A stretch of 64,000 bases of DNA from a virus (IMGVR_UViG_3300033072_000338:3383-67382), one strand, 5' to 3'. Shown: positions 13,731-64,000, counted from the stretch's first letter. A program made the numbers and translations. Notes: generated by a model from the letters alone, not told the origin.

Positions 13731-14777
13731 ATGAAAGCTATCATAAAAGTCTCCGCACTGGCCCATGCCCTCGACATAACCCAGAAGCTCGCAGCACCAG
13801 GGGAGGACGGGGTGGTCGCCATCTCATACGATGGAACCAAGAAGCTGACCATACGGTCAGCGTCAGATACCAGCCAATCGGTTGTGCGTGTCCAGTTCGA
13901 TTCCATTGAAGGTGAGGCTGTCGAGTTCGGCATTGTCCTGGCTTCACTGCGGGATGCTACCAAGGGTCACACGACTATCTCCATGACCGTTGCCAACGCG
14001 GTCGTGACACTGAAGGCAAAGGGGAGCGTGATCACCCTTCCTACTGTTGACACCCCGGATATCGAGGGCGTCTCAAAGGCTGAAGAAGAGCAGGAATGGG
14101 AGCTCAGCGCCGAAACGGCGGCTACTCTTCTTGGGGCGGTCAAGGCCGTGGCTTTGAAGCCGACTACGATGTTGACTTCCTGGATACCCATCGGTATCCG
14201 ACTGCGCAAGAATTCAGGGTTCGTGTGCAGCTACGACGACAACCGCGTGAGCTGGGGAACTATCAAGGAAGGTGGGGACTTCGAGTGTGTTGCGCCAACG
14301 GACACTATGGTCGCTGTGCTAGATGCGCTGAAGGGCCATTCGCTGCGAGTCGCAACTTCTAAGGGCCGCCTCGCGGTCACGACAAAGACAGCGCAGGTCA
14401 TCATCAACACACCGGTGGACGACACACTCTCGAGCCTCGATGAGGTGATTGAGAAGTCCCGTGAGATGGCAAAGCAGAAAGGTCAGATTGGGGCACTGGA
14501 CCGAGGCACACTGCAACGGTTCTTCGACAACGCCCGTGCCATCACGGGTAAGGATCGAGCTGAGATCGTCTCGAACGGGAAGACCCTCAGCATTCAAAGC
14601 ACCATTGGTGCAGTCACTCATGATATGCCAGCACCCGAGTTCAAGGTCGACTTCGAGTTCTTCGCTGAAGCGGTCGGCAAGGTTCAGGGGTCTTCAGTTA
14701 ATCTGAACGTCGTAGGGTCGGACTTCTTGTCCATCGGATCCAGCGTCGGTGCAATCGTGATAGGGCAGAACCAATGA
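13731..14777 (+). CDS. Putative DNA sliding clamp (DnaN beta-like)
   Basis: 348 aa with the repeated beta/alpha pattern of beta-clamps (LTIRSASD, VCSYDDNRV). Same operon as the clamp loader and DnaB. Confidence 0.6.
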   Translation: MKAIIKVSALAHALDITQKLAAPGEDGVVAISYDGTKKLTIRSASDTSQSVVRVQFDSIEGEAVEFGIVLASLRDATKGHTTISMTVANAVVTLKAKGSVITLPTVDTPDIEGVSKAEEEQEWELSAETAATLLGAVKAVALKPTTMLTSWIPIGIRLRKNSGFVCSYDDNRVSWGTIKEGGDFECVAPTDTMVAVLDALKGHSLRVATSKGRLAVTTKTAQVIINTPVDDTLSSLDEVIEKSREMAKQKGQIGALDRGTLQRFFDNARAITGKDRAEIVSNGKTLSIQSTIGAVTHDMPAPEFKVDFEFFAEAVGKVQGSSVNLNVVGSDFLSIGSSVGAIVIGQNQ

Positions 14778-51588: not shown

Positions 51589-52100
51589 TTTGCGATTATG
51601 TAGTAAGCATCCGCTATCTTTGTGACTGGAACGACTTTGTCTTTGTAGCGCACTGTAGCGACCTTCGCTCCCTGAACATCAACCCATCCTTCGATGTTCA
51701 ACAGCTGAGAGCCCCCAAGCTGAGGGATCTTGACTTTACCTAGGTGCTTGATGCACAGCTTGTGCCACGCCTTCAAGGCCCCGACACTCATGGTCGTAGA
51801 CGATAGTAGGGAGCCGTGGTAATCGAGGGCAGCTTCGTACAGAGCAGATCCCAAGCCCTGACCAACGTGTTCTTGCAGGACGACGTTTGTGGAGACTCGG
51901 GCGCTGCTACCAATAGGCAAAAGAACCAGTACACCAGCGACCTTGTTGTCTGGGTCGATCGCGCATACAGCGAACTGATCTACGTACAGGTCAAACTGTT
52001 TGAACTCACCGAGATGTTCACGTGGAGCCTTGCTCGCTTGCTGAGCGGCAAGCGCCCTCTTGAGCGAGGGACTTGCTGTAGTGTACCGATTGATCTTCAT
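51585..52100 (-). CDS. GNAT-like acetyltransferase (paralog of 49648-50229)
   Basis: VLQEHVGQGLGSALYEAAL, LLSSTTMS...AWHKL, NIEGW. Confidence 0.7.
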   Translation of the reverse strand: MKINRYTTASPSLKRALAAQQASKAPREHLGEFKQFDLYVDQFAVCAIDPDNKVAGVLVLLPIGSSARVSTNVVLQEHVGQGLGSALYEAALDYHGSLLSSTTMSVGALKAWHKLCIKHLGKVKIPQLGGSQLLNIEGWVDVQGAKVATVRYKDKVVPVTKIADAYYIIAK

Positions 52101-53389
52101 AAGTTCAAGGAGCGCAGGGTGCGCTTAGGGTGTCGCCACCAGTCATTGGGTAGAGTCACTTGTTCTCCTGTCTTTGGGTTGAGCACGACACACCAAAGAA
52201 CCTTGATACCCACCTTGGCGGCTGTTCTGGCTTTCTGTGCGTTGCGCTTCAGTATCTTGTCATTCGTGCAGCCTAGAGTGTAGTCACTCTTGACTTCGAT
52301 GAATCCTTTGTCTTTGATCCACAGATCTGGGATCCACCCGAGAATCTTCGCCAACTCATCAGGGTACGCACCATCGTATTGAGTTGCGACGTTACGGGGG
52401 CCGAAGCGTTTGACCACCTTCCGTATAACGACATCTTCCCAGCCCTGATACCGGAAGACGCGCCTGTTTAGGGTCAACTCTTTGATCTGGTATCCGGTTA
52501 TTGCTTGGGCCCGATGCACACTCGGATCCTTTGAATGGTGATCTACTCCGTACTTCTTTAGGCAGGTGGCTTTACGTTTGTCCTGAACCTCAGGAGTACA
52601 CGTACCCGACAAGCCTCCGTACTTAACCAAATTAGTGTGGCGCGCCTTCTCAGTAGCGCCGTCTACCAACGCGACATTGTCAACCCCGTATCGTCGTAAA
52701 TTCGTACGCTTCATCTTCTCTATGACATCGCTGCACTGCGCTGGATTGGCCACACCGTAACGTTCTAAACATGTGGCTTTCATGCGAGCTATTACAAGTG
52801 GGGAGTTCGCGGGAGCATTACCACCGTAGCGCTCTCTATTGGTTGCCTCAGCTTTAGCCCGCACCAGGGGATCTTTCATTGGGCTGCCACCATAACGCGC
52901 TTTGTGGATGCGTCGTATGTGCCTCTTCACGGACTCAACCTGCCCGACATTGGCAACCCCGTAGCGTGCTAAATTCGTTGCGGTCGCCTTCGAAACCGCA
53001 TCAGCTCGGTTGATCGCAAGCCATTCTTTATACCGGTCCCGCTTGCAAAGCACACAACACGAAGTGGTAACCAAGAACCGACCACAGAGTGCGCATGGCT
53101 CACCGTACTCGTAGGCGTTTAAGACACACTGCGGATTCATCACAGCGTTACCACAGGTTGCCCACAGGACTGCCCGGAAAACACTAGGCTTGGTTGTCCT
53201 CAGGGTGCTCAGCAGATCGTTGGCCCAGTACCGGCTAGACCTATCCGCAGTTGCGAGCATCGCATCAACAACTGCTCTCCTGGACTTCGTCAGCGTGCAT
53301 GCAACCCCAGCATAAGCTGCGATACGAGCGGTGCGGGTTTCCACCGAGTCGGCCTTCTCAAAGATATCTTGGTAATACGACACTGTCAT
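52097..53389 (-). mobile_element. Putative homing endonuclease: Cys cluster, T.L.RYGV.N repeats and PD-(D/E)xK domain
   Basis: CALCG..C..C, about 6 [RK]YG repeats, C-terminal WIPDLWI...IEVKSDYT. Confidence 0.65.
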
Positions 53390-53428: not shown

Positions 53429-55063
53429 TTACAAATCGTCGCCTGCCTTGAGGAGTTTCTCCAGGATGGTTGGTGGGCGGTAGCCCCAGCGATCGAAGAG
53501 ATCCACCTGAAGCCCACAGTCAATATAGTTTAAGCTCGCAGTTGTGCCGGTCACCGATTCGGTGTCGGTTCCAACCCCACGCTTGTGATTCAGGAGCTTG
53601 CCGACTTGCTCCGTCATGTCCTTGTAGCGAGCAAGCGCTTCTTTCTCCGTCGATGGTGGGCGCTTGGTGGCATCCTTCTCGCAGAGCTGACCGAACAACG
53701 TGGTGCCCCGGCAAGTGCGGAGCTTGTGGACGCTCACGCCCTGAGGTGCACCGAACGTGTGGAATGCAGCATTGATGTCTGAAGGAGTGACTCGAACAAA
53801 CTTGCCCTCACGCGGTTCTGCAGTGAACAGGAACGAACTCGGGGTCTTGTCAGCACGGAGTTGCTTGAGGGCCTCGACAACGGCGGCTGAGGCAGCGTTG
53901 GTTGAGCTCTTGATGATGTGCTTGGTGGGGATCGAGTCCTTGCCAAGATACGCCAAGTTCACACCCTGCTGGGTCTCACTCGAATTCTTGACCAGGAGGG
54001 TCCCGACACCACGACCCGGTTCACTACCGACACGTGCAGCGAACGAGTAGAGTATCTCGAGAACAACCGCTGCGACGCTCTCTTTCTTCGTGATGTCGAA
54101 GTGCAGAACGTGCTGCAGCCACTTCTTGCGGATGCCGTCAATGTTCTTCATCAAGTCGGCAACCTTCTCGTACTTGTGCAGGGCTTGACCACGCTTGAAG
54201 TTCGCAGTGTACCCGTAAGCGACACCACCATCCTTCTTCACAGCCTTGAACGTCCACTGTGCTTCGGGGTCTTCACCATCGTTCATGATGACGTGCGTGT
54301 AGGTAGAGAGATTCGGCACGCCAGTGATCAGTTCGCCTTCAGAAGTGAACCAACGGCCTTGGTCATCAATCTGACCAGTGAAGCCGGGCACCATCGAGTG
54401 TGTGAACCCGTTCTTGATGGCGAAGTCGTACGCGCTTTCGTACGGAACCAACTTCTTGCCCGACTCACGCACGAACTGAGTGAGGAGCGCCTTGAACTCT
54501 GTGTTGTGGGCTTTCCGCAGTTCCTTGTACTTGTCGAACAGTTTGGGGTTCGTTTCCTTGGCGAGTTGCGCTTCTTCGAGAGTCAGGTGCTTCCCGTTGC
54601 GACCCACCAACGATTTGACGGTGCGCGCCAATGCCTCATGGTCTGACTTCTCGACGGGCGGAAGAAAGCGAGCTGCCAGCTTGGGGCCCATGAGTGAAGC
54701 GTTCTTGCGAATGAACGCGAGTGCCGACTCGGAGTCAGTGGACAGGTACGAGCGGAGTGCCTTCAACATGGCGATCTCACCAGACGAGTACTCGCGGTTG
54801 TTGCGGAAGACAGGGATGGCTTCCTTCAACTCAGTACCCAACTCGTAGAGAGCTTGCATCTTGTCACCGCCGGAGACGCAGGTCTTGATGGCGTCTTGCA
54901 ATCCGGGCAGATCCTTCCACTCCAGCCTTGTGGTTGCCAGAGGTTTGAGGTCAGCACTCATCGGCTTCTTGGGGTTCTCTATGTAGTCGAGCACCAGCGC
55001 ACCGAGGACTTGCAGAAGAGTCGCTAGCTGACTCGCCACCAGCTTGTGAATTTGAAGTGTCAT
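53429..55063 (-). CDS. Type IB DNA topoisomerase-like enzyme
   Basis: Catalytic pentad candidates in order: AARVG (R), YLGKD (K), HKLRT (R), LLNH (H), LNYID (Y). Start moved to ATG 55063. Confidence 0.72.
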   Translation of the reverse strand: MTLQIHKLVASQLATLLQVLGALVLDYIENPKKPMSADLKPLATTRLEWKDLPGLQDAIKTCVSGGDKMQALYELGTELKEAIPVFRNNREYSSGEIAMLKALRSYLSTDSESALAFIRKNASLMGPKLAARFLPPVEKSDHEALARTVKSLVGRNGKHLTLEEAQLAKETNPKLFDKYKELRKAHNTEFKALLTQFVRESGKKLVPYESAYDFAIKNGFTHSMVPGFTGQIDDQGRWFTSEGELITGVPNLSTYTHVIMNDGEDPEAQWTFKAVKKDGGVAYGYTANFKRGQALHKYEKVADLMKNIDGIRKKWLQHVLHFDITKKESVAAVVLEILYSFAARVGSEPGRGVGTLLVKNSSETQQGVNLAYLGKDSIPTKHIIKSSTNAASAAVVEALKQLRADKTPSSFLFTAEPREGKFVRVTPSDINAAFHTFGAPQGVSVHKLRTCRGTTLFGQLCEKDATKRPPSTEKEALARYKDMTEQVGKLLNHKRGVGTDTESVTGTTASLNYIDCGLQVDLFDRWGYRPPTILEKLLKAGDDL

Positions 55064-55104
55064 GGGAATTCCGTGTATTCGGCTGTGCCGATTGTCAGTC
55101 GAGC

Positions 55105-55138
55105 AAAGAAAAGGGAGCCTCCGAACAGGAAGCTCCCC
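55105..55138 (-). terminator. Intrinsic terminator ending the nucleotide-modification operon
   Basis: GGGAGC/GCTCCC stem followed by TTTTCTTT on the minus strand. Confidence 0.75.
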
Positions 55139-55169
55139 ATAAAATTGCACTGACGAATGCACGGAAAGG

Positions 55170-55568
55170 TCACGCAGGACGCGTCAATTCGCGCAGATCA
55201 GGCCTGTCAGTCCCCTGTGCGATTGCAGCCCGCGCAGCTTCGAGTGGAGTCAGGACGCTACCGTTAATGTAGTCGCAGACCGGAGAAATGGTACGGCTTT
55301 TGAACATGAACTTGACGTGCACGTCAACTCCGTGTGCAGAGCCCATGGAAATGAGGGCAGAAGTATCCAGGGCTTTGTGGTCAATACCGAACTTGACCCG
55401 AACATCGGTGGGCAGATCTAGCTTGATCTGTACATCGAAATTGTAGAACACCCTACCAGCGGACATGAGGCTATCCAGCAAGCTACGGGCAAGCTCCGCA
55501 GCTAACGGATCGGTGGCCTCGCGGAAGGCCCGCATCTCGGCGTCTGCTTCCGTAATGGTCTTGAACAT
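55170..55568 (-). CDS. Hypothetical protein (paralog A)
   Basis: ATG 55568 behind GGAG. Similar to the upstream ORF. Confidence 0.6.
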   Translation of the reverse strand: MFKTITEADAEMRAFREATDPLAAELARSLLDSLMSAGRVFYNFDVQIKLDLPTDVRVKFGIDHKALDTSALISMGSAHGVDVHVKFMFKSRTISPVCDYINGSVLTPLEAARAAIAQGTDRPDLRELTRPA

Positions 55569-55570
55569 AG

Positions 55571-55987
55571 TCACTCCGATCGCTTCAGACGGTTCAGTGA
55601 CGGAACGTGCGTGTCTTGGACACATGCTTGCTGTAGGATCTCCAGCTGCGTCAGGTCATTTGAACGCGTAGTGCGTGCGTCGATCAGATACATCCGATCG
55701 TACAGGTACTTGACCCGACTCTTACCTTCCTTCGTCTCGGAAGTGCCATCGTCGCTTACACGAAGCACGACCTCCAGCCTCTTGTTCAGACCATAGCGTT
55801 CCATGAGCTCATCGGGCACGGGAACGTGCAAGTTGACCACGAAATCGTAGAACTCCAGGTCGCCCATGGCCTTAACACCGGCCATGAACTGTGCAGAGGC
55901 GGCTTTCACAAAGGGAAGCAACTCATTCTGGAACGCAGTGTTCTCAGCCTGTGCTGCATCCAACGTTTTCAATGCTTGAGATGTCAT
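55571..55987 (-). CDS. Hypothetical protein (paralog B)
   Basis: ATG 55987 overlaps the HD gene stop. Confidence 0.6.
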   Translation of the reverse strand: MTSQALKTLDAAQAENTAFQNELLPFVKAASAQFMAGVKAMGDLEFYDFVVNLHVPVPDELMERYGLNKRLEVVLRVSDDGTSETKEGKSRVKYLYDRMYLIDARTTRSNDLTQLEILQQACVQDTHVPSLNRLKRSE

Positions 55988-56562
55988 GTCATACCCCACT
56001 GTGTTTCAAGGTCGTACACACCGTTGGAGACTTCGGAGTAAACAGCGGTGTATTCTCGGTGGAACGGCTGCTGAAGCAGAAGCGTCATGTCAATGTAGCG
56101 TGAGAAGTTCCGAGCGGGTTGAGCAGCCAGCCGGTTGCCCATTCGCATCTCGTGATAGCACGAAATGAGCCCCGCAAGATTGTCAAACAGCTTGAAGACC
56201 TTACGTTCGCTTTCCACGAGATGCGGTTCCACGACACCACAGCTACTGAAGGCGTCGATCTCCAGTTGCTTCAAGACCGCGTTCACATCCACACCTGATT
56301 CGGACATTGCACGCTTGACCGGCGACGGGATGTCGCCAGTGGCGAACTCCGCGGCATCGTGCAGAGCAGCATAACGGTAGATCTGAGCAGGCGCGTCGGG
56401 CCAGATCACCGCGATCAAGGCGCACACCAGACCATGATGTGCAGCAACCGTCTCAGTATTGATGGTCGGGACAGTGTGGAAACGCTTTGTCCACATACTG
56501 TCGAGAATGAAGCGGGCCTTGTTGGGGAGCCTGCCGCTAACAGACGTTTCGGTGCCTTGCAT
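55984..56562 (-). CDS. HD-domain 5'-deoxynucleotidase-like hydrolase (YfbR-like)
   Basis: RFHT...ETVAAH, AALHDAAEFATGDIPSPVK, KLFD. Confidence 0.82.
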   Translation of the reverse strand: MQGTETSVSGRLPNKARFILDSMWTKRFHTVPTINTETVAAHHGLVCALIAVIWPDAPAQIYRYAALHDAAEFATGDIPSPVKRAMSESGVDVNAVLKQLEIDAFSSCGVVEPHLVESERKVFKLFDNLAGLISCYHEMRMGNRLAAQPARNFSRYIDMTLLLQQPFHREYTAVYSEVSNGVYDLETQWGMT

Positions 56563-56565
56563 AAT

Positions 56566-57636
56566 TCACTTCACGAAGGTAGGGCGGCGAGCCAGCCAGT
56601 CAATGGCAGCAAGACGCCAGGGAGATTTGGCGAACGCGGATTCAGGTTGGTCGTCTACGACCCCCATCAACCACTCACGGGCCTTGTTGGGGCCGAATCG
56701 CTTGTAGCGCTTGAAGCCGTCGCTCATGCCACTGACGATGTTCACGAAGTCGTAGACGCCACCGTCACAGTCAGCGAAGTACGAGTAGTGCTCGTCGTCC
56801 ATGAAGTCGATCAGCAGCTGCTCGAAGATGCCGGTGTTGGTGTAGTCATCGTTCTCGCTGAGCTGTGCCAGATTCAAGTTGTCCACCGGATAGTCGAACG
56901 GCTCCTCGATTAGGGACAGGGGGTTAGCCCAACAACGCTTGGACACTGGGTTCAGCTCAGTGTAGAGATGCATGTTGTTGGAAGTCTGGTAGTAGGTACC
57001 GACAGGCATGAACGTCATCCCAGCCATGTACTCGTGGAGCACGCTCATGTGAACGAGGTTGGCCCCACACGCACCCAAGACCGAATCGTTACTGCGGTTC
57101 ACCACGGTCATGTTCAGCGCGCCGTTCACGACATCAAACATGATCGCGAAGTTGCAGCACTGGTCTTTACCGCCGTTGATGCCGTAGATCAAGTCCTTGG
57201 CGTCGTGCATGATGAGAACGGCTCGGCGCGTGGTCGGGTTTGCCTTCAGCTCCTTGATCAGTACTTCGATCTGGTCGAACCCAAAGTGCTTGCGCCAGCG
57301 ATATCCGTATGCGCCGTTCAGTGTCACCCCGTCGTCGCTGTAGTTCGCCATGTTGGGAGCCAGCTTCGCGACCGTCGCCACGTCGTTGCGGCCAGCCAGC
57401 ATCCAAACAGCTTCGATCAGGTGCAGGAACGGATTGGCGTCGCGCACTGCCGACGACGACACACGCTTCAGGTTCTCCCACACGATGGTGAACGGAGTCG
57501 GAGAGCGGACCACCGGGCCGTTGCGGCTCGGGCTTTCGACACCGCAGTGCTTCAGGTGGTTGAGGAGCAAGGCCAAAGCCGCGTCGGGTTGGTCAGCCTT
57601 GACATGGAAGGGGGATGTGAGTGTGGGTTTGTTCAT
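56566..57636 (-). CDS. Thymidylate-synthase-family enzyme, probable dUMP hydroxymethylase
   Basis: SRNG, GAYGYRW, PTTRRAV, catalytic Cys in QCCNF, RSNDSVLGACGANLVHMSVLHEY (Asn at the specificity position), NNMHLY. Confidence 0.8.
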   Translation of the reverse strand: MNKPTLTSPFHVKADQPDAALALLLNHLKHCGVESPSRNGPVVRSPTPFTIVWENLKRVSSSAVRDANPFLHLIEAVWMLAGRNDVATVAKLAPNMANYSDDGVTLNGAYGYRWRKHFGFDQIEVLIKELKANPTTRRAVLIMHDAKDLIYGINGGKDQCCNFAIMFDVVNGALNMTVVNRSNDSVLGACGANLVHMSVLHEYMAGMTFMPVGTYYQTSNNMHLYTELNPVSKRCWANPLSLIEEPFDYPVDNLNLAQLSENDDYTNTGIFEQLLIDFMDDEHYSYFADCDGGVYDFVNIVSGMSDGFKRYKRFGPNKAREWLMGVVDDQPESAFAKSPWRLAAIDWLARRPTFVK

Positions 57637-58124
57637 TGGATGCTCCGGCTGATGATTTGCTCAGCTACGTCGTTGATGTCTTTGAGCTCGTAGTGCAGGG
57701 TTGCACCGAGAGGTGTGGCATCGAACATGCTTTGCGTGTCCGAGAACCTACACTGGAACCCGTGTTCACGGGTCACTGTGTAGAGGTCGTAGATCGTACC
57801 CGATGCACCGACATTGAAGGCAGCACGGGCCTCAACGGTTGGCATCACGAAGTCCACGACGGGTAGCAGACCGTTACGTGCGGCCAGGTACATGACTGAA
57901 CCGATGCGGCGGGCATTCTCGATACGTGAAGTCGAATCGAAGCCGAGATCGCTGTTGAGCGATGCCCGTACCGTGTCGGCGTTCACGTGGAATGTTGGGA
58001 TGCCCTTGTGTTTCAGGATCATCACGATTCGGTTGGCAAGCGTTGTCTTACCAGAACCTGGGAGACCACGAAGAACGATAGCGTGCCCTTTCGGGTGCTG
58101 GGGAATCTGAACTGCTTGGATCAT
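57633..58124 (-). CDS. cysC: Adenylylsulfate (APS) kinase-like P-loop kinase, short phage form
   Basis: GLPGSGKTTLA, NADTVR..LNSDLGF...SRIENARRIG, VVDFVMP...R, RFSDT..F. Confidence 0.75.
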   Translation of the reverse strand: MIQAVQIPQHPKGHAIVLRGLPGSGKTTLANRIVMILKHKGIPTFHVNADTVRASLNSDLGFDSTSRIENARRIGSVMYLAARNGLLPVVDFVMPTVEARAAFNVGASGTIYDLYTVTREHGFQCRFSDTQSMFDATPLGATLHYELKDINDVAEQIISRSIQ

Positions 58125-59029
58125 GGTGTGTAACCTGTCTGTTGTAGTGACTTGCTGTATTTACGGTTGAGCTCAGCGAATGGGGTCTTCAGGTCGAGCT
58201 CAACAACCTTTGGCAAGCGCGTCATCTTGTGGAGTTCCATGAACTCAGCCAGGAACTTCTCAGTGCGCTTCACGTTGGGCCTGGTGAAGGTCTTCCTGAG
58301 CGTGAAGCCGCCTCCGTGGTTGCCAGTGTATTCCAGGTCGTGGATATAGCCGGGGAACTGCTTGGCCATGACCATCGCCGAGTAGACGATGAGCTCAGGC
58401 GTCCGGTATTTGTTGGTGCCGGAATGGCGCAGCTTCTGGTTGTCACGCATCGAATAGGCGACCCTAGCATTCGTCACGACTTCACCCCCAGACAGGATGC
58501 ACTGTAGAGGCATTGAGATGTCCGTGAAGAAGAACGCGTGGTACGTGAGCTTCGGTCGCTTAGCCTTTTCGGCAAAGCCAGCAAAGCAGAATGGAACGGC
58601 TCCGTGCTCCAGCTCACCAGTCTCGAGAATGCGCTTGGAGGCCATGAATGTGTTGGTGGCACCGGCGACCAGGGCAGAACCGAGATTATCGAATATGGAC
58701 TCCACCCCCCTGGTGAACCGTGTGGGCATCGACTTTGCAGGCACGTACTTGCTCTGCTTCGCGGACCAGGTGGAAAGCCCAAGGTCATCGTCGAGAACAA
58801 GGTAAGGTTCGTCCACGTTCTCATACAGATATCTGCGCTTCTTTGGGATGCAGTCGATATGGGTCGGCCAGCATTCGATAGTGGCCCCTGCGTATTGAGC
58901 ACTGCTCTTGTAGAGCTTGTACTGATCCTTCGGTACCCACACCTCCACGGAAGACTTCAGATTGTCGGGCAACGACTCGAAGGTGGGGGCGTAGTCTTGT
59001 CGGTCGCGACTTGTGATGATGAGTTTCAT
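58121..59029 (-). CDS. GT-A fold glycosyltransferase (phage DNA glycosyltransferase-like)
   Basis: IITSRDR start, VWVP..QY..Y, IPKKRRYL, YLVLDDDL (DxD), later D...LQ.I..G. ATGA-coupled. Confidence 0.7.
   Translation of the reverse strand: MKLIITSRDRQDYAPTFESLPDNLKSSVEVWVPKDQYKLYKSSAQYAGATIECWPTHIDCIPKKRRYLYENVDEPYLVLDDDLGLSTWSAKQSKYVPAKSMPTRFTRGVESIFDNLGSALVAGATNTFMASKRILETGELEHGAVPFCFAGFAEKAKRPKLTYHAFFFTDISMPLQCILSGGEVVTNARVAYSMRDNQKLRHSGTNKYRTPELIVYSAMVMAKQFPGYIHDLEYTGNHGGGFTLRKTFTRPNVKRTEKFLAEFMELHKMTRLPKVVELDLKTPFAELNRKYSKSLQQTGYTP
58158..58164 (-). promoter_or_regulatory. GTAAATA promoter-like motif
   Basis: Minus-strand heptamer 33 nt upstream of ATG 58124, inside the upstream gene. 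Confidence 0.55.
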
Positions 59030-59781
59030 ATGTGGGTTGGTTGGTTGACGGCCAGCCACTCGCGGTCGCTGTATGGGGCCGTGTTGATGTCTACAAGAGC
59101 TGCGAAGCCGGGATCCTTCAGGGCCTTGACTCGATACGAGTAGAAGTCCAGGCACTTCTGCAGATCAGCCCGTGTGTCGTGCATCGAATACCCGAAGACT
59201 TTGAAGTCCTTGTAGTACAGACGGTTGACCAGCCGAATCTGGTCTTCAGTAAGTGGTCGGTGTGGAGGGGACGGGCGCGAGTTGACGGTCAAGTCAATAT
59301 CGAGCCCAAGGGTCTTGTTTATGGTGGCAACATCGTGGTCGAGGCTTTCGTAGTGCCCGATCAGGTTTGCTCCGGCACCCGTGTTCGCGAAGAAGAGATG
59401 CTGGGGGCAGAAGTGAATGAATCGCCAGTCATAGAAGATGTTGCCCTCGGTCAGCAGGTGCTCGATCGGAATGCCGGCGAACTCCTGCCCATGTCGCCGA
59501 TTGAACTCGATGAGGGCCGAGGCGAATCTAGTGTAGGGGCTACGAACGAACCCGAAGGACGTGAACTCCGACGGGTCGATCTGCACCTTCTCGAACAGGT
59601 AGGGGAGTTGGCTAGCAGTCGGGTGAGCTAAGTCGATGACTCGGTGTTCGGGCGTGAAGAAGACTTGGTGCCAGAACTGGACACTCACGTCATGGTACTT
59701 CTCGAGCTGGTTGCGAATGGTCGTTCCTGACACCTTCGGGTTATGGATGAAGATGAACTTCTTGGCTTTTGAGATAATCAT
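59026..59781 (-). CDS. PAPS-dependent sulfotransferase (Sulfotransfer_2-like)
   Basis: 5'-PSB FIFIHNPKVSGTTI, 3'-PB FGFVRSPYTRFASA, HFCPQH, IGHYESL..D, YYKDFKVFGY. Confidence 0.88.
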   Translation of the reverse strand: MIISKAKKFIFIHNPKVSGTTIRNQLEKYHDVSVQFWHQVFFTPEHRVIDLAHPTASQLPYLFEKVQIDPSEFTSFGFVRSPYTRFASALIEFNRRHGQEFAGIPIEHLLTEGNIFYDWRFIHFCPQHLFFANTGAGANLIGHYESLDHDVATINKTLGLDIDLTVNSRPSPPHRPLTEDQIRLVNRLYYKDFKVFGYSMHDTRADLQKCLDFYSYRVKALKDPGFAALVDINTAPYSDREWLAVNQPTHI

Positions 59782-60850
59782 TTGCGTCCTTGAGTGCCAT
59801 TGCTACGACCTGATCCATGTCGTAGTATCGGTAGCTGCCGAGGCGACCACCGAAGATGATGTTGGGGAATTCGCGTGCTGCCTTGACCCTGTACAGTTCG
59901 TAGATAGACTGGTTGGCAGGATCATTCACAGGATAGTAGGGATGATCCCCCACCATCCAATCCTTCGGGAACTCCAGCGTCTGGGTCGTCATGTCTCGCA
60001 TGACTCGCGTTGCCTTGTAGAACTGCTGATGCTCGATAGTACGAGTATGTCCACCAGGATTCAAGTTGTTGACAACCGATGTGTCTTGCGTCCGACGGTA
60101 CACGTCCTGGAAGCGCAAACCACGGTAAGCCAGAGGCCCGAACTTGTACCCCAACAACTTGTCGATTTCACCGCTGTAGAAAGTGGTGACCTCGTCACAA
60201 TCTTCAATCACGAATGGTGTACGAAGATGCAGATGGATCTTGGGGTTGTCAAGCATCTGACCCACCATTCTGGTGTACCCCTTGTCAGGCATCCACTGGA
60301 ACTTCGCGTTGCGGAAGTACGTTTCGTCACCATCCAGACGGACTGGCAGGCGCTCGATGATTGAGGCTGGTAGTTCGGAGCACGGCCGACCCCATTGCTT
60401 CTCGGTGTAGTTCTTGACGTACACGGCATAGAGCTCCGGTCCGATGTTAGACAGGCACCACTCCTCAACGTTCTTAGGGTTGGGGTTCTTAGGCAGTGAA
60501 TCCACATATGCCTTGGCCTCTTCGGCCGTCTTAACCCCGAGGACCGCGCTGAAGGCGCGTAGGTTGAACGGGAGTGGAAAACGTTTCCCTGCCAAATCCC
60601 CTACGACTCGGTGTTCGTAGGGGATCGGATTGGTGAATCGACACAGGAACGTGTCCACCTTCTCACTGTTGGTATGGAAGATGTGCGCGCCGTGATAGCA
60701 GATAGGAACACCGTCAATCACGCGATCCGCGATGTTGCCCGCGATACGGCCACTAGCCTCCAGCAACAAGACCCCGATCCCGGCATCCGCCAGGACCCGA
60801 GCAACAGTGGCACCGTACAGCCCGGCACCCACGACACGAACAACTTTCAT
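59741..60850 (-). CDS. glf: UDP-galactopyranose mutase
   Basis: VVGAGLYG Rossmann motif, HGAHIFHT, YTEKQWG, YRGLRF, TRTIEH, PYYPVND, GRLGSYRYYDMDQ. Confidence 0.93.
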   Translation of the reverse strand: MKVVRVVGAGLYGATVARVLADAGIGVLLLEASGRIAGNIADRVIDGVPICYHGAHIFHTNSEKVDTFLCRFTNPIPYEHRVVGDLAGKRFPLPFNLRAFSAVLGVKTAEEAKAYVDSLPKNPNPKNVEEWCLSNIGPELYAVYVKNYTEKQWGRPCSELPASIIERLPVRLDGDETYFRNAKFQWMPDKGYTRMVGQMLDNPKIHLHLRTPFVIEDCDEVTTFYSGEIDKLLGYKFGPLAYRGLRFQDVYRRTQDTSVVNNLNPGGHTRTIEHQQFYKATRVMRDMTTQTLEFPKDWMVGDHPYYPVNDPANQSIYELYRVKAAREFPNIIFGGRLGSYRYYDMDQVVAMALKDANDYLKSQEVHLHP

Positions 60851-60859
60851 ACTCGTCCT

Positions 60860-62212
60860 TCACTTCTTCTTGACCTTCTTAGGGTAACCGTCAGGTCCAA
60901 ACCTATTTATGGCTGCCTTGATTGTTGGCGTCGGCTTCCCTTCGAGCTTGAGGTCGCGAGCCGCCTCGATAGCAGGGGTAGTTTCTCCCATCTCCAGCTT
61001 CTTGTAGATGCCACAAGGCTTCTGCTCAGCCAGCTTCAGGAAGTCGAGGCTACACTTGCGATAGTCGAAATACGGGAAGACGTGCTTGCGGCCGTAGTCG
61101 ATGATGGCCATGGCATCATCCTCGTGCATATTCGCCACCTCGTCGATCAGCTCGGCCAGTTCCCTCGGGGTAGCCTTGTGCGAGATCTCGATGTGAGTCT
61201 TGCCCGGCTTGAAGATCTGGCGCGGGGTGTTCGTGTCCCGCATGTTCATATCCACACAGATCGGCACGACCCCGTTGTTGTAGCCCTCGATGATTGAGCG
61301 GTTGAAGTGGTTGCCCAGATTGTTGAACGTGTCGGAGAACGACATGTCCACCATGACCCGGGAGTTCTGGTAGATCTTGAAGAGACGTGATGGAACAAGC
61401 AGTCCCTTATACGCAAAACGACCGCTCTCTTCGGCGGCCTTCCACAACCCCTGGTACTCCTTGGGGCACTTTTCCTTGCTCTGCATGTAGCGTCGCTCGA
61501 TCCCGTCACCGGCCATGATGACCTTGCTCCTCTTTAGCAGAGGCGCAGCTTTCACGACCCAGTCCTGGTGCTTCCAAGCCTTCCACATATGGGCGGCGAC
61601 GCCGACCTTACGTCGTTCCTTCCATGTTGGAAGGTTGTCCCAATCCAGCACCGGATGCGGTGCACCGATGAACGATCGCAAGCCCGGATACCACTTCAGG
61701 CCGTTGTAGCCAGCGGGGTTCGTACACGACACGCCCTTGATGTACTTGGCGATGTCGATGATGTGGGGATACATATTGCGGAAGTGGGCATCGTGGACCA
61801 CAATGATCTGCGGTGTCTTGATGCGATAGATCTTCTTCCAGTAGCCTTCGGGATCCGGGGGGTTTGGGCCCGGGATCTCGTGGAAGATCACATCGTACTT
61901 GGAAGCCATGGACTTCCAACGCTCGATCCCCTCATCGGTTGTATAGCCGATGACCGGGATGTTGTACCAGCCCATCGCGGTGTTGGCAAGGATCTGTTTG
62001 CCTTTGTACTTGCCGAAGTTCGAGTCGTAGGTGCCCTCAGGGCCACCGTCGAGCAACGTCTTTTTCAAGCCAAACGCGATCTTGGAAGGCCGCAGGCAGA
62101 CGATGCCGACCTGATGACCGGCCTCCTTGAGACCTCGGCATTTCAGCTCCAGGTCGGCGGTGATACCGCCGAAGTCCAGGATGTCAAAGATTGTGAAGAG
62201 TATGCGGGCCAT
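60860..62212 (-). CDS. GT-B fold glycosyltransferase
   Basis: DFGGI...L..AGHQV N-terminal motif, VVHD, AGDG, F....IEG...G.VPI C-terminal motif. Confidence 0.72.
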   Translation of the reverse strand: MARILFTIFDILDFGGITADLELKCRGLKEAGHQVGIVCLRPSKIAFGLKKTLLDGGPEGTYDSNFGKYKGKQILANTAMGWYNIPVIGYTTDEGIERWKSMASKYDVIFHEIPGPNPPDPEGYWKKIYRIKTPQIIVVHDAHFRNMYPHIIDIAKYIKGVSCTNPAGYNGLKWYPGLRSFIGAPHPVLDWDNLPTWKERRKVGVAAHMWKAWKHQDWVVKAAPLLKRSKVIMAGDGIERRYMQSKEKCPKEYQGLWKAAEESGRFAYKGLLVPSRLFKIYQNSRVMVDMSFSDTFNNLGNHFNRSIIEGYNNGVVPICVDMNMRDTNTPRQIFKPGKTHIEISHKATPRELAELIDEVANMHEDDAMAIIDYGRKHVFPYFDYRKCSLDFLKLAEQKPCGIYKKLEMGETTPAIEAARDLKLEGKPTPTIKAAINRFGPDGYPKKVKKK

Positions 62213-62240
62213 TAGTAGAGCTCCTGGTTATGGTTGGGGT

Positions 62241-63215
62241 TCATGCGCCGAGCCCTGGCTTGTACGTGTTCTTCATGCGATCCCGGCGCCCGAGGGCCAT
62301 CCAGGCATGCTTCGAAAGCTCGCAGAGACTGTTGGACGCATTGGGGGCGGTCAGGGGGACGATGTGCGTCCTCATGTCCTTGACGTCGTCAGACCACCAG
62401 CGATGGGCGCTCAGCTCGTGGTTCAGGTCGTCACGGTAGCGAGTCAGGGCCTTGTCCATCTCCTCACCAGGGTTCAATTCGTAATCCTCGGTGATGAGGC
62501 GAATCCCCTTTTGGGTCCCTGGGCCTGGAGACCAGACTTCATTGAGATCAGCAGCACTGCGCAGGAACTTCGTGTAGGAAAGGTCGCACGCAGCTTGGTT
62601 AGCCATGAAGGCCCCAATGCCGTGGACCTGGCGGTAGGCGTCCATCATGCCACGGTACGATCCGCCATGCATGGCTTCTGCTAGAATCTTGCGCTTCGAC
62701 CATGCCTCTGGGATCAAGAAGTTTGCGATATAGTCGCCCTTGGTGCCGTCGATCTTCGGGAAGTCTTTCGGAAAGACGGTATTCACGATGTAGGCGCCGG
62801 TCACCAGTTGGCGCTTCTTGTCGTTCTTGATTTCCTTGAAAACTTTCCAGGCTGTGGCCTGTTGAGAAGAAGTACTGAAGTCAACGCCAGCAGACGTTAG
62901 GGCGTTCAACGTAGAAGGGAGGTTGATGACACGGCCGATCAAGGCGACAATCGCCAAGTTGGGGTTCGCTACCTGGGGGCGCACCCAATCACGCATGATG
63001 TCCACGGTCACACGGTCAAGCTCACGGTAGATATTGCAGAACCGATATGCCCGCAGGATCGGGTCGTTGGTCCAGGGGGCAGGCTCACCGGCAGCTTTTA
63101 GGATGTAGACACGATGGCGCTCAGCACAGAACCGGGCGGCTGCTTTGACGCGTGCCGAGTATCGGGTATTTTCCCAGTTGCAGCACAGATTCTCGAACAA
63201 GGGGATGGCAGTCAT
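62241..63215 (-). CDS. 5-hmdU DNA kinase / aGPT-Pplase helical-family protein
   Basis: ERH.VY..K.AGEPAPWTNDPILRAYRFCNIYRELDR, IGAFMA.Q.ACDL, GPGT.KG, N.LCE..K. Confidence 0.75.
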   Translation of the reverse strand: MTAIPLFENLCCNWENTRYSARVKAAARFCAERHRVYILKAAGEPAPWTNDPILRAYRFCNIYRELDRVTVDIMRDWVRPQVANPNLAIVALIGRVINLPSTLNALTSAGVDFSTSSQQATAWKVFKEIKNDKKRQLVTGAYIVNTVFPKDFPKIDGTKGDYIANFLIPEAWSKRKILAEAMHGGSYRGMMDAYRQVHGIGAFMANQAACDLSYTKFLRSAADLNEVWSPGPGTQKGIRLITEDYELNPGEEMDKALTRYRDDLNHELSAHRWWSDDVKDMRTHIVPLTAPNASNSLCELSKHAWMALGRRDRMKNTYKPGLGA

Positions 63216-63610
63216 AGGGATTCGTGTTTGAAGGTTGTTGGGTTGTAGACCACGTCGAGGACGGTGATCTCCAGGGTGGCGTCGTGGTTGAGAAGGCCAG
63301 TGATCTCGAACCTGTGCTCGTCCAGGAAGGCCCGGTGTGGTGGGTGGTATGAAGAGAAGATCCGGGTGTCACCGGGGATCGACGAACGATACGCAATGCT
63401 GGCGGATCGAAAGCCGAAAACACACGTATCGTTGAACCTCAGGTCGTGTTCGAGCAGAAGGTACGGGTCTCTCTGATACAGGGCCAGCCGTTGGCTTGGC
63501 AGCAGACGAGAAGGCCTGAACTCGTAAGACGTCCTGTGGAGCGTGTACTCCTTGGGTGCGTCACCATTCGCCAGTTGTTCCTCAAGGACTTGGTAGGGAT
63601 GGCGTGTCAT
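63212..63610 (-). CDS. Hypothetical protein
   Basis: 132-aa ORF with GAGGA RBS, ATGA-coupled to the hmdU kinase-like gene. Confidence 0.55.
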   Translation of the reverse strand: MTRHPYQVLEEQLANGDAPKEYTLHRTSYEFRPSRLLPSQRLALYQRDPYLLLEHDLRFNDTCVFGFRSASIAYRSSIPGDTRIFSSYHPPHRAFLDEHRFEITGLLNHDATLEITVLDVVYNPTTFKHESL

Positions 63611-63986
63611 TGGGTCCTCTAAAATTGATGCTCGCTCTATTTACGCTTTGGGCACGGTCCACGAAGTCTCTCAGCATACGTACCTCATCAGCAGTTGGGT
63701 TGAAGTTGGTACGCAGGTGAGTGCAGGCATCATTAGCCTGGGCGATGACCTTGTGGTTGGCCAGAGTACGTGGGATGTCATGATGTCGGCGCTCGGCGTA
63801 GATGAGAGTGAAGTTACCGTTGTCGATTACATTCACATAGCCCATCCCCTGATAGTCCATGAGCAGCCCGGACACCTCTTCCTCTGTTAACGGCCCAGAC
63901 ACAAAGGTAGTGTAGAGGCGGTCGGGCACCCTCACATGAACTGCTCTGCGGCTGACCTCGATACCTCTTTGGTCACCCGCTTCCAC
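63582..63986 (-). CDS. Hypothetical protein (start uncertain, near window edge)
   Basis: 134-aa ORF overlapping the downstream gene. Confidence 0.5.
   Translation of the reverse strand: MEAGDQRGIEVSRRAVHVRVPDRLYTTFVSGPLTEEEVSGLLMDYQGMGYVNVIDNGNFTLIYAERRHHDIPRTLANHKVIAQANDACTHLRTNFNPTADEVRMLRDFVDRAQSVNRASINFRGPNDTPSLPSP
63638..63644 (-). promoter_or_regulatory. GTAAATA promoter-like motif
   Basis: Minus-strand heptamer 27 nt upstream of ATG 63610. Confidence 0.55.
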
Positions 63987-64000
63987 AGCCGGTGCAGTTC

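Follow-up and report, generated by a model that had tools for sequence, protein, structure and literature searches.

A jumbo-phage operon that may decorate 5-hydroxymethyluracil in DNA with a sulfated glycan

The 64-kb stretch of DNA analysed here (the window) is the terminal part of a 67.4-kb viral contig from IMG/VR (IMGVR_UViG_3300033072_000338), with the window end coinciding with the contig end at position 64000. With a CheckV completeness of 28%, the contig represents part of a jumbo-phage genome, and protein comparisons relate the phage to Ralstonia phage phiRSL1. Close to the contig end lies a run of minus-strand genes whose eight core members encode, in order, an HMUDK_hel (PF18723) protein (hel), a GT-B-type glycosyltransferase (GT), a UDP-galactopyranose mutase family protein (Glf), a sulfotransferase, a GT-A-like glycosyltransferase, a kinase of the adenosine 5'-phosphosulfate (APS) kinase family, a thymidylate synthase (TS) homolog and an HD-domain nucleotidase. 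On balance, the operon most likely yields 5-hydroxymethyluracil (hmU) in DNA with an attached glycan, which in this phage includes a furanose and which is sulfated with 3'-phosphoadenosine 5'-phosphosulfate (PAPS) made by the phage. The minus-strand run extends over positions 55170–63998, adjacent open reading frames (ORFs) sharing 4 nt (ATGA) or sitting no more than 28 nt apart, and the eight core genes form a single translationally coupled operon. All eight were found where the original prediction, made from the DNA alone, had placed an operon of overlapping or near-abutting genes.

The formation of hmU is indicated by the TS homolog (356 aa, 56566–57636; all operon coordinates refer to the minus strand), which scores 3.5e-19 against its Pfam family and 4e-87 against phrog_5131, and is 42% identical to PaMx11 gp51 over its full length and 40% identical to phiRSL1 ORF230. 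According to Lee et al. 2026 (PMC13326640), the diagnostic features of such enzymes are the catalytic Cys, N177 as the mark of dUMP, an acidic residue at L143, which indicates a hydroxymethyl and not a methyl product, and D169N as the mark of 5-hydroxylation. The active site of the window enzyme holds Cys146, an Asp at the L143 position three residues ahead of the Cys, Asp169 and Asn177. An identical signature is present in PaMx11 gp51 and in the enzyme of the M6-like phage PAC9, and the KDxxCN, NRSND and GAN motifs recur unchanged in PaMx11 and M6-like phages, which build their modifications from 5-hydroxymethyldeoxyuridine (hmdU) (PMC8989533). Because its Cys, Asn and two Asp residues fit the positions given in PMC13326640, the protein reads as a dUMP hydroxymethylase. 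Assignment as a 5-hydroxy-dCMP synthase or a dCMP hydroxymethylase was ruled out, given that Asp169 and Asn177 are both retained. The gene that follows encodes a YfbR-like HD-domain 5'-deoxynucleotidase (192 aa, 55984–56562; PF12917, 2e-9) with the H..HD..D motif in its sequence. An equal TS–HD pairing occurs in PaMx11 and PAC9, and the nucleotidase is probably an editor of the pool of dTMP or other deoxynucleoside monophosphates (dNMPs).

Glycosylation is suggested by three further proteins. The GT-A-like enzyme (302 aa, 58121–59029) most likely starts at ATG 59029, which overlaps the sulfotransferase stop as ATGA, rather than at GTG 59155, and is assigned by orthology to the TET-associated glycosyltransferase (TAGT) family of DNA glycosyltransferases. 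The TAGT family PF20691 is matched by four of the six GT-A orthologs (best 2e-10), and the window protein is 28% identical to phiRSL1 ORF237, itself a TAGT, and matches phrog_842 at 1.5e-6. It has an isoelectric point (pI) of 9.3, and R10 and D80-D81-D82 are invariant among the orthologs, an R...DDD motif that fits validated phage DNA GT-A enzymes and the base-J glucosyltransferase JGT. Its AlphaFold2 model (pLDDT 70.6) yielded weak GT-A matches in Foldseek. Glf (369 aa, 59741–60850) is recognized by PF03275 at 2e-52 (178 bits, cut-off 26.3) and by NAD_binding_8 at 9e-13, and its 270.5 bits against TIGR00031 fall a little under the equivalog cut-off of 303.75; it belongs to the family, with UDP-galactose as the probable nucleoside diphosphate (NDP)-sugar. 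The GT-B-type protein (450 aa, 60860–62212; pI 9.4) has orthologs with 51–65% identity in four related IMG/VR loci (L006, L009, L011 and L013) and is a candidate furanosyltransferase acting on a DNA-linked sugar or on hmU. Its look-alikes in the ESM Atlas belong to viral Glycos_transf_1 and T4 AGT clusters, a language-model resemblance that serves as a lead only. The T4 AGT hidden Markov model (HMM; PF11440) gave no match for GT-B on the contig at E ≤ 1, no GT-B homolog was present among 50,697 phage records, and a profile search of the GT-B alignment against the PDB returned no match.

Sulfation is suggested by the sulfotransferase (251 aa, 59026–59781), which matches PF03567 (Sulfotransfer_2) at 2.6e-11 (44.6 bits, cut-off 22) and phrog_3347, a Gal-3-O-sulfotransferase family, at 1e-21, and is 37.6% identical to phiRSL1 ORF232. 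The motifs FIHNPKxxGT (5'-PSB) and FGFVRxPYxRxxS (3'-PB) of the PAPS-binding site are invariant across 13 homologs, and the protein is classed from its sequence as a PAPS-dependent, carbohydrate-type sulfotransferase. PF03567 enzymes of known substrate act on carbohydrates. The small P-loop kinase encoded nearby (163 aa, 57633–58124) matches PF01583 at 1e-19 (71.5 bits, cut-off 21.1), and when aligned to the solved APS kinases 6b8v, 2pey and 4bzp it retains the P-loop, Arg, LGF, Arg-x-x-Asn and EN motifs. Together with its phage homologs it forms a distinct clade marked by NAD in place of DGD, absence of the lid and an RFADT motif. One relative bears on its role. The genome G003, which contains locus L010 and has two sulfotransferases, encodes CysD (1e-105, above the subfamily cut-off) beside a CysN without a kinase domain (7e-77); the two ORFs (1357–2442 and 30–1565, both minus strand, in L027, G003:160689–164378) lie about 10 kb from the modification cluster. 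Because this CysN has no kinase domain and APS needs an APS kinase, the cluster kinase is the sole PAPS-forming candidate in G003. The small kinase is probably the PAPS supplier, with CysD/CysN of G003 tipping the balance that way.

The kinase family varies in length and in genomic setting. A further domain of roughly 80 aa at the C-terminus (YIRYNT.SDG...WR.I...) is conserved in four phage APS-kinase-like proteins (phiRSL1 ORF238 at L001 2675–3370, L009 8186–8875, L010 3675–4442 and L013 8153–8872) and is absent from the 163-aa version of the window; the domain matched no family. APS-kinase-like genes with approximately 37% identity over the N-terminal 120 aa also occur in small siphophages, namely Xylella phage Salvo (gp32, L025 5989–6735) and Sano/Suzuki/Bhz60. 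Salvo-type kinase genes adjoin a topoisomerase gene, with no sulfotransferase nearby.

The association of these genes is conserved. Eleven IMG/VR loci were recovered with the sulfotransferase alignment and none with a single sulfotransferase query. A core set of hel, TS, APS-kinase-like protein, sulfotransferase and TAGT-like GT is shared by the window, phiRSL1 (ORF230–238) and seven IMG/VR loci (L006/L007 and L009–L013); L007 is a near-identical twin of L006, so these represent six distinct uncultured jumbo-phage loci beyond the window and phiRSL1. Gene order within the set is heavily shuffled between loci, and because content is conserved while order varies, one shared function is well supported. 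Two types of cluster can be distinguished. Type-A clusters (window, L006/L007, L009, L011 and L013) add Glf and, in every case, GT-B, and type-B clusters (phiRSL1, L010 and L012) have NDP-sugar pyrophosphorylases and two or three TAGTs beyond the core one. In all orthologs, hel, GT-B and the TAGT-like GT have a pI of 9.1–9.7, as expected for DNA-binding enzymes; for Glf and TS the value is neutral or acidic. The gene set is thus no chance grouping. Both the sequence signatures and this conserved co-occurrence agree with four elements of the original prediction: a TS-family enzyme with Asn specificity making 5-hydroxymethyl-dUMP, at least one DNA-type glycosyltransferase, a UDP-pyranose mutase, and a PAPS-using sulfotransferase with its own APS-kinase-like enzyme. 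The uniqueness that it implied was not borne out, as the same core is present in the cultured phage phiRSL1, sequenced years ago and the only one among the 50,697 phage records with a sulfotransferase of this type.

A four-step pathway can be proposed. Before replication, the TS homolog would turn dUMP into 5-hydroxymethyl-dUMP and the HD nucleotidase would trim competing dNMPs, with the outcome that hmU would partly or wholly replace T in DNA, a step proposed because of the TS active-site signature and its homology to enzymes of phages proven to use hmdU. After replication, the basic GT-A would glycosylate the hydroxymethyl group in DNA, as its TAGT family membership and R...DDD motif suggest. 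Glf would then turn a UDP-pyranose, probably UDP-galactose, into its furanose form, which the basic GT-B would add, a step put forward because Glf and GT-B strictly co-occur. Finally, the 163-aa kinase would make PAPS from APS and the carbohydrate-type sulfotransferase would sulfate the glycan, as suggested by the conserved PAPS-binding motifs, the co-occurrence of kinase and sulfotransferase, and the CysD/CysN pair of one relative.

Several observations weigh against this scheme. The hel protein is without a role in it. The window GT-A has no Pfam match of its own, and GT-B scores 22 bits (2e-4) against Glyco_trans_1_4, under the 27-bit cut-off. The kinase reaches 68.1 bits against TIGR00455, with an equivalog cut-off of 138.7, and comparison of the phage kinase homologs with E. 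coli CysC showed the lid motif (GEI..FTGID) to be absent and DGD to be replaced by NAD in all of them. The sulfotransferases have a pI of 6.2–8.6 and are not basic. The contig, at 28% completeness, is cut just upstream of the operon. Within the related genome G001 (230 kb, 97% complete), a sulfotransferase (42% identical) and Glf are present at the syntenic site (L008 8698–10894), beside homologs of phiRSL1 ORF229/ORF228, and no TS, APS-kinase, hel or TAGT match was obtained across the whole genome. Because G001 has only those two enzymes, sulfotransferase and Glf can exist without an hmU route; they are either the remnant of a cluster or enzymes able to serve another acceptor. Pfam and PHROG scans of the neighbouring genes in G001 gave nothing relevant.

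The place of hel requires closer consideration. The protein (324 aa, 62241–63215; pI 9.2) matches PF18723 at 8e-36 (124 bits, cut-off 25) and is 37% identical to phiRSL1 ORF231. PF18723 bears the name '5-hmdU DNA kinase, helical domain' and corresponds to what was formerly aGPT-Pplase clade 1, as seen from the way GenBank annotates this gene in M6-like phages. Family searches backed the gene labels of the original prediction with the exception of 'hmdU-DNA-kinase-like', given to this protein, which is the helical domain alone and has no P-loop kinase. The P-loop 5-hmdU DNA kinase family PF18748 had no match in the window, its contig, phiRSL1, G001 or G002 (99% complete), with positive controls detected in PAC9 (1e-19) and PaMx11 (9e-5); given the 28% completeness of the contig, its absence from this phage rests on the relatives. 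The amino acid:DNA transferase family PF18724 (aGPT-Pplase clade 2) likewise had no match in the window, phiRSL1, G001, G002 or G003, and the PaMx11 control scored 3e-29. A 5-hmdU DNA kinase as the start of the pathway, as first proposed, is therefore not supported, only the helical PF18723 protein being present in the window, and because PF18748 and PF18724 are absent the system is not of M6 type despite the shared front end.

All invariant motifs of PaMx11 gp50 and PAC9 ORF86 are found in hel, among them Cys298-Glu299..Lys302, which is invariant throughout the hel family. The AlphaFold2 model (pLDDT 78.6) has a helix-hairpin-helix (HhH) DNA-glycosylase-like fold, and its best VIA match is PaMx11 gp46/PUGT, the 5-phosphomethyldeoxyuridine (5-PmdU) glycinyltransferase (Z 11.1, 227 aa, rmsd 4.3). 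That match is tied with DUF2419 and Ogg/EndoIII HhH glycosylases, and a Z of this size is indecisive for helical proteins, though the list of matches is coherent. A sequence-profile search of the hel family alignment against the PDB gave no match. The C-terminal LCE..K of hel resembles the ILCKWK of gp46, an equivalence by motif and position alone, and in aGPT-Pplase clade 2 the Cys and a nearby Glu are catalytic (PMC8989533). Invariance of Cys-Glu..Lys from phiRSL1-like to M6-like and PaMx11 phages suggests that PF18723 is an enzyme in its own right. Because it is a structural relative of a 5-PmdU transferase and has a conserved Cys-Glu pair, hel probably acts on a C5-substituted uracil in DNA.

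These features open an alternative in which sulfate is a transient leaving group. The sulfotransferase would O-sulfate hmU in DNA, the hel Cys would attack C6 and expel the sulfate, and a nucleophile or reductant would replace it; sulfate would take the part that phosphate plays in M6, ViI and PaMx11, and the glycosyltransferases would work at different sites or on the final product. Esterification of a benzylic or allylic alcohol with sulfate is known to give a reactive electrophile, hel always accompanies the sulfotransferase and kinase, and PF18748 and PF18724 are absent from phiRSL1 and from relatives of 97–99% completeness, with controls working. The fold shared with gp46 and the placing of the invariant LCE..K like the gp46 ILCKWK, in view of the catalytic Cys and Glu of clade 2, are also consistent with it. 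However, carbohydrates are the acceptors of those PF03567 enzymes whose substrates are known, the sulfotransferases lack the basic pI of the DNA-acting proteins of the cluster, and the sulfotransferase of G001 accompanies Glf with hel absent. Furthermore, no PLP (pyridoxal phosphate), radical S-adenosylmethionine (rSAM) or amino-acid-type supplier of a nucleophile was seen in the cluster, and the equivalence of the hel and gp46 Cys residues is one of motif and position only. This alternative is considered unlikely. The specific form in which, in phiRSL1-like phages, sulfate replaces phosphate as the activator to give 5-sulfooxymethyl-deoxyuridine in DNA, with the clade-1 aGPT-Pplase displacing it in a Cys-dependent manner, is quite unlikely; were it true, it would constitute a new DNA-level reaction and provide a function for PF18723.

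Sulfation of a DNA-linked glycan, the preferred reading, must also be weighed against action of Glf, GT-B and the sulfotransferase away from DNA, for instance on a protein of the virion or a glycan of the host surface, these genes merely being placed in an early or middle operon alongside a simpler module for hmU with or without a single sugar. The genomes G001 and G005 both have sulfotransferase homologs (distant in G005), and G001 also has Glf, with no TS, APS-kinase or hel match in either and no TAGT in G001. The pI of the sulfotransferase is neutral, and no HMM connects GT-B with known DNA glycosyltransferases. Against an off-DNA role, the Glf, GT-B and sulfotransferase genes of the window are interleaved and translationally coupled with those for hel, the TAGT-like GT, the kinase and TS, and the set stays contiguous through the shuffling of order in seven loci and phiRSL1. 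GT-B is as basic (pI 9.4–9.7) as the DNA enzymes, and the sulfotransferase of type-B clusters has TAGT genes around it and no gene related to another acceptor. On this evidence, an acceptor other than DNA is judged decidedly unlikely.

Within the preferred scheme, a function of the APS-kinase-like protein as a 5-hmdU DNA kinase was rejected, as BLASTP aligned it to PaMx11 gp49 and PAC9 ORF87 over the P-loop only and PF18748 was not matched. The related notion that the protein is not an APS kinase, being instead a hel partner (an APS-kinase fold recruited as an hmU-DNA kinase) or a kinase of hmdUMP, with the sulfotransferase using host PAPS, is the least probable of all: every known thymidine-hypermodifying phage has hel beside or fused to a small P-loop kinase, this is the sole P-loop kinase of the cluster and directly follows hel in L011, it falls below the apsK equivalog cut-off with no lid and with family-specific NAD and RFADT motifs, and sulfotransferases without the kinase (G001, G005) and Salvo-like kinases without a sulfotransferase exist, but the descent from APS kinases is clear (1e-19) with no PF18748 match, the APS-binding Arg, Phe and Arg of solved enzymes are retained, and the CysD and CysN of G003 would make APS, for which exactly an APS kinase activity is needed.

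The operon extends past the eight core genes, with two small ORFs upstream and two downstream, and is truncated at the contig end. Upstream, a 5'-open ORF cut by the contig end (138 aa read, 63582–63998) matches no Pfam family, and a 132-aa ORF (63212–63610), with a stop that overlaps the start of the hel gene by 4 nt, matches no Pfam or PHROG family. Downstream of the HD gene, ORFs of 142 aa (55571–55999) and 151 aa (55170–55625), the latter being the final gene ahead of the terminator, also have no Pfam or PHROG family. The operon ends at a strong intrinsic-terminator-like hairpin with an 11-bp stem containing seven GC pairs and a T-rich tail, located on the minus strand at 55138–55112, where a terminator had been predicted at 55105–55138. 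Directly past it lies the likely ATG (55063) of a gene for a 577-aa protein (53429–55162, minus strand) in which a topoisomerase IB catalytic core of eukaryotic type (PF01028, 1.4e-21) follows an N-terminal extension of around 300 aa; a 62%-identical ortholog of the protein occupies the equivalent place in L006. A phage-specific topoisomerase I is listed for phiRSL1-group phages by Iyer et al. 2021. Downstream of the topoisomerase gene is one for a DUF7487 protein (1e-33; 430 aa, 52097–53389, minus strand). In L006, the closest relative of the cluster, the hel gene is preceded upstream by one for an R2K-clade ATP-grasp protein (9e-12; 1643–2467), and a gene for a DnaJ-domain protein (1e-18; 13780–14418) is inserted between TS and HD; the window contig stops before the corresponding upstream region.

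The novelty of the system would lie in its sulfation step. To our knowledge, no nucleic acid is known with a sulfate ester. Among the papers searched, none was found that connects a sulfotransferase or sulfation with phage DNA hypermodification. A furanose on a phage base is not new, as arabinofuranosyl-5-hydroxycytosine has already been shown in RB69/DLP3 and a galactofuranose (Galf) route has been proposed for Rhizobium phage RL38J1 (PMC13326640). The part predicted to be new, and chemically novel, is therefore the addition of sulfate to a hydroxymethylpyrimidine hypermodification, a furanose on the base being already known. If correct, a sulfated furanose-containing glycan at many or every T would define a new class of DNA hypermodification, and the added negative charge would be opposite to that of the cationic amino-modified thymidines. 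Probable effects would include those on restriction, CRISPR and other nuclease defences, on packaging into the jumbo capsid, and on sequencing and amplification. PF18723 is common to all thymidine-hypermodifying phages, and the cluster poses the question of its role without a 5-hmdU DNA kinase. The enzymes of the cluster might also be developed to attach glyco- or sulfo-labels site-specifically to hmU in DNA.

Comparison with known systems places the operon among several distinct pathways. Its nearest cultured counterpart is the co-directional ORF228–238 cluster of phiRSL1 (AB366653.2), which shares TS (40%), hel (37%), sulfotransferase (38%), APS-kinase-like protein (32%) and TAGTs. The phiRSL1 cluster differs from that of the window in encoding three TAGTs together with two NDP-sugar pyrophosphorylases and in lacking Glf and GT-B; its kinase carries the extra domain of about 80 aa, and a HAD phosphatase stands in place of the HD nucleotidase. 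The literature search found no report on the DNA chemistry of phiRSL1, and because this cultured phage has the same core the hypothesis is directly testable.

With M6, ViI, PaMx11 and phiW-14 (PMC5889632, PMC8989533) the window shares a dUMP hydroxymethylase of the same subfamily, the adjacent HD nucleotidase and a PF18723 protein. Those phages use 5-HMUDK and an amino acid:DNA transferase, whereas the window system is without PF18748, PF18724 and the PLP, rSAM or flavin adenine dinucleotide (FAD) tailoring enzymes and has instead glycosyltransferases, Glf and the sulfation pair.

Glycosylated pyrimidines form a further point of reference. T4 DNA contains glucosyl-hydroxymethylcytosine, and the base J of kinetoplastids is glucosyl-hmU. 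Glycans added by TAGTs to 5-hydroxymethylcytosine (5hmC) have been described in phage DNA (bioRxiv 10.1101/2023.12.21.572611). A search for Tet_JBP in G001, G002, G005 and phiRSL1 gave no match, an uninformative result because the positive control was equally silent. Glycosylated hydroxypyrimidine systems combine a TS-family enzyme, GT-A (R...DDD) and GT-B DNA glycosyltransferases, and a phage NDP-sugar mutase for the furanose, and the window encodes probable counterparts of each. The acceptor predicted for the window is hmU made before replication, in contrast to the 5hmC or 5-hydroxycytosine of known glycosylated phage DNA, and neither a sulfotransferase nor an APS kinase occurs in any described system of this kind. 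The sulfation pair itself resembles bacterial pairs of an APS kinase and a sulfotransferase (NodQ/NodH, and CysC with carbohydrate sulfotransferases), in which a PAPS maker stands beside a PAPS user, as is probably the case here, and one relative of the window phage adds CysD/CysN. Unlike its bacterial counterparts, the window kinase is trimmed to 163 aa, has no lid and scores below the equivalog level, and the acceptor of the phage pair would be a glycan on DNA.

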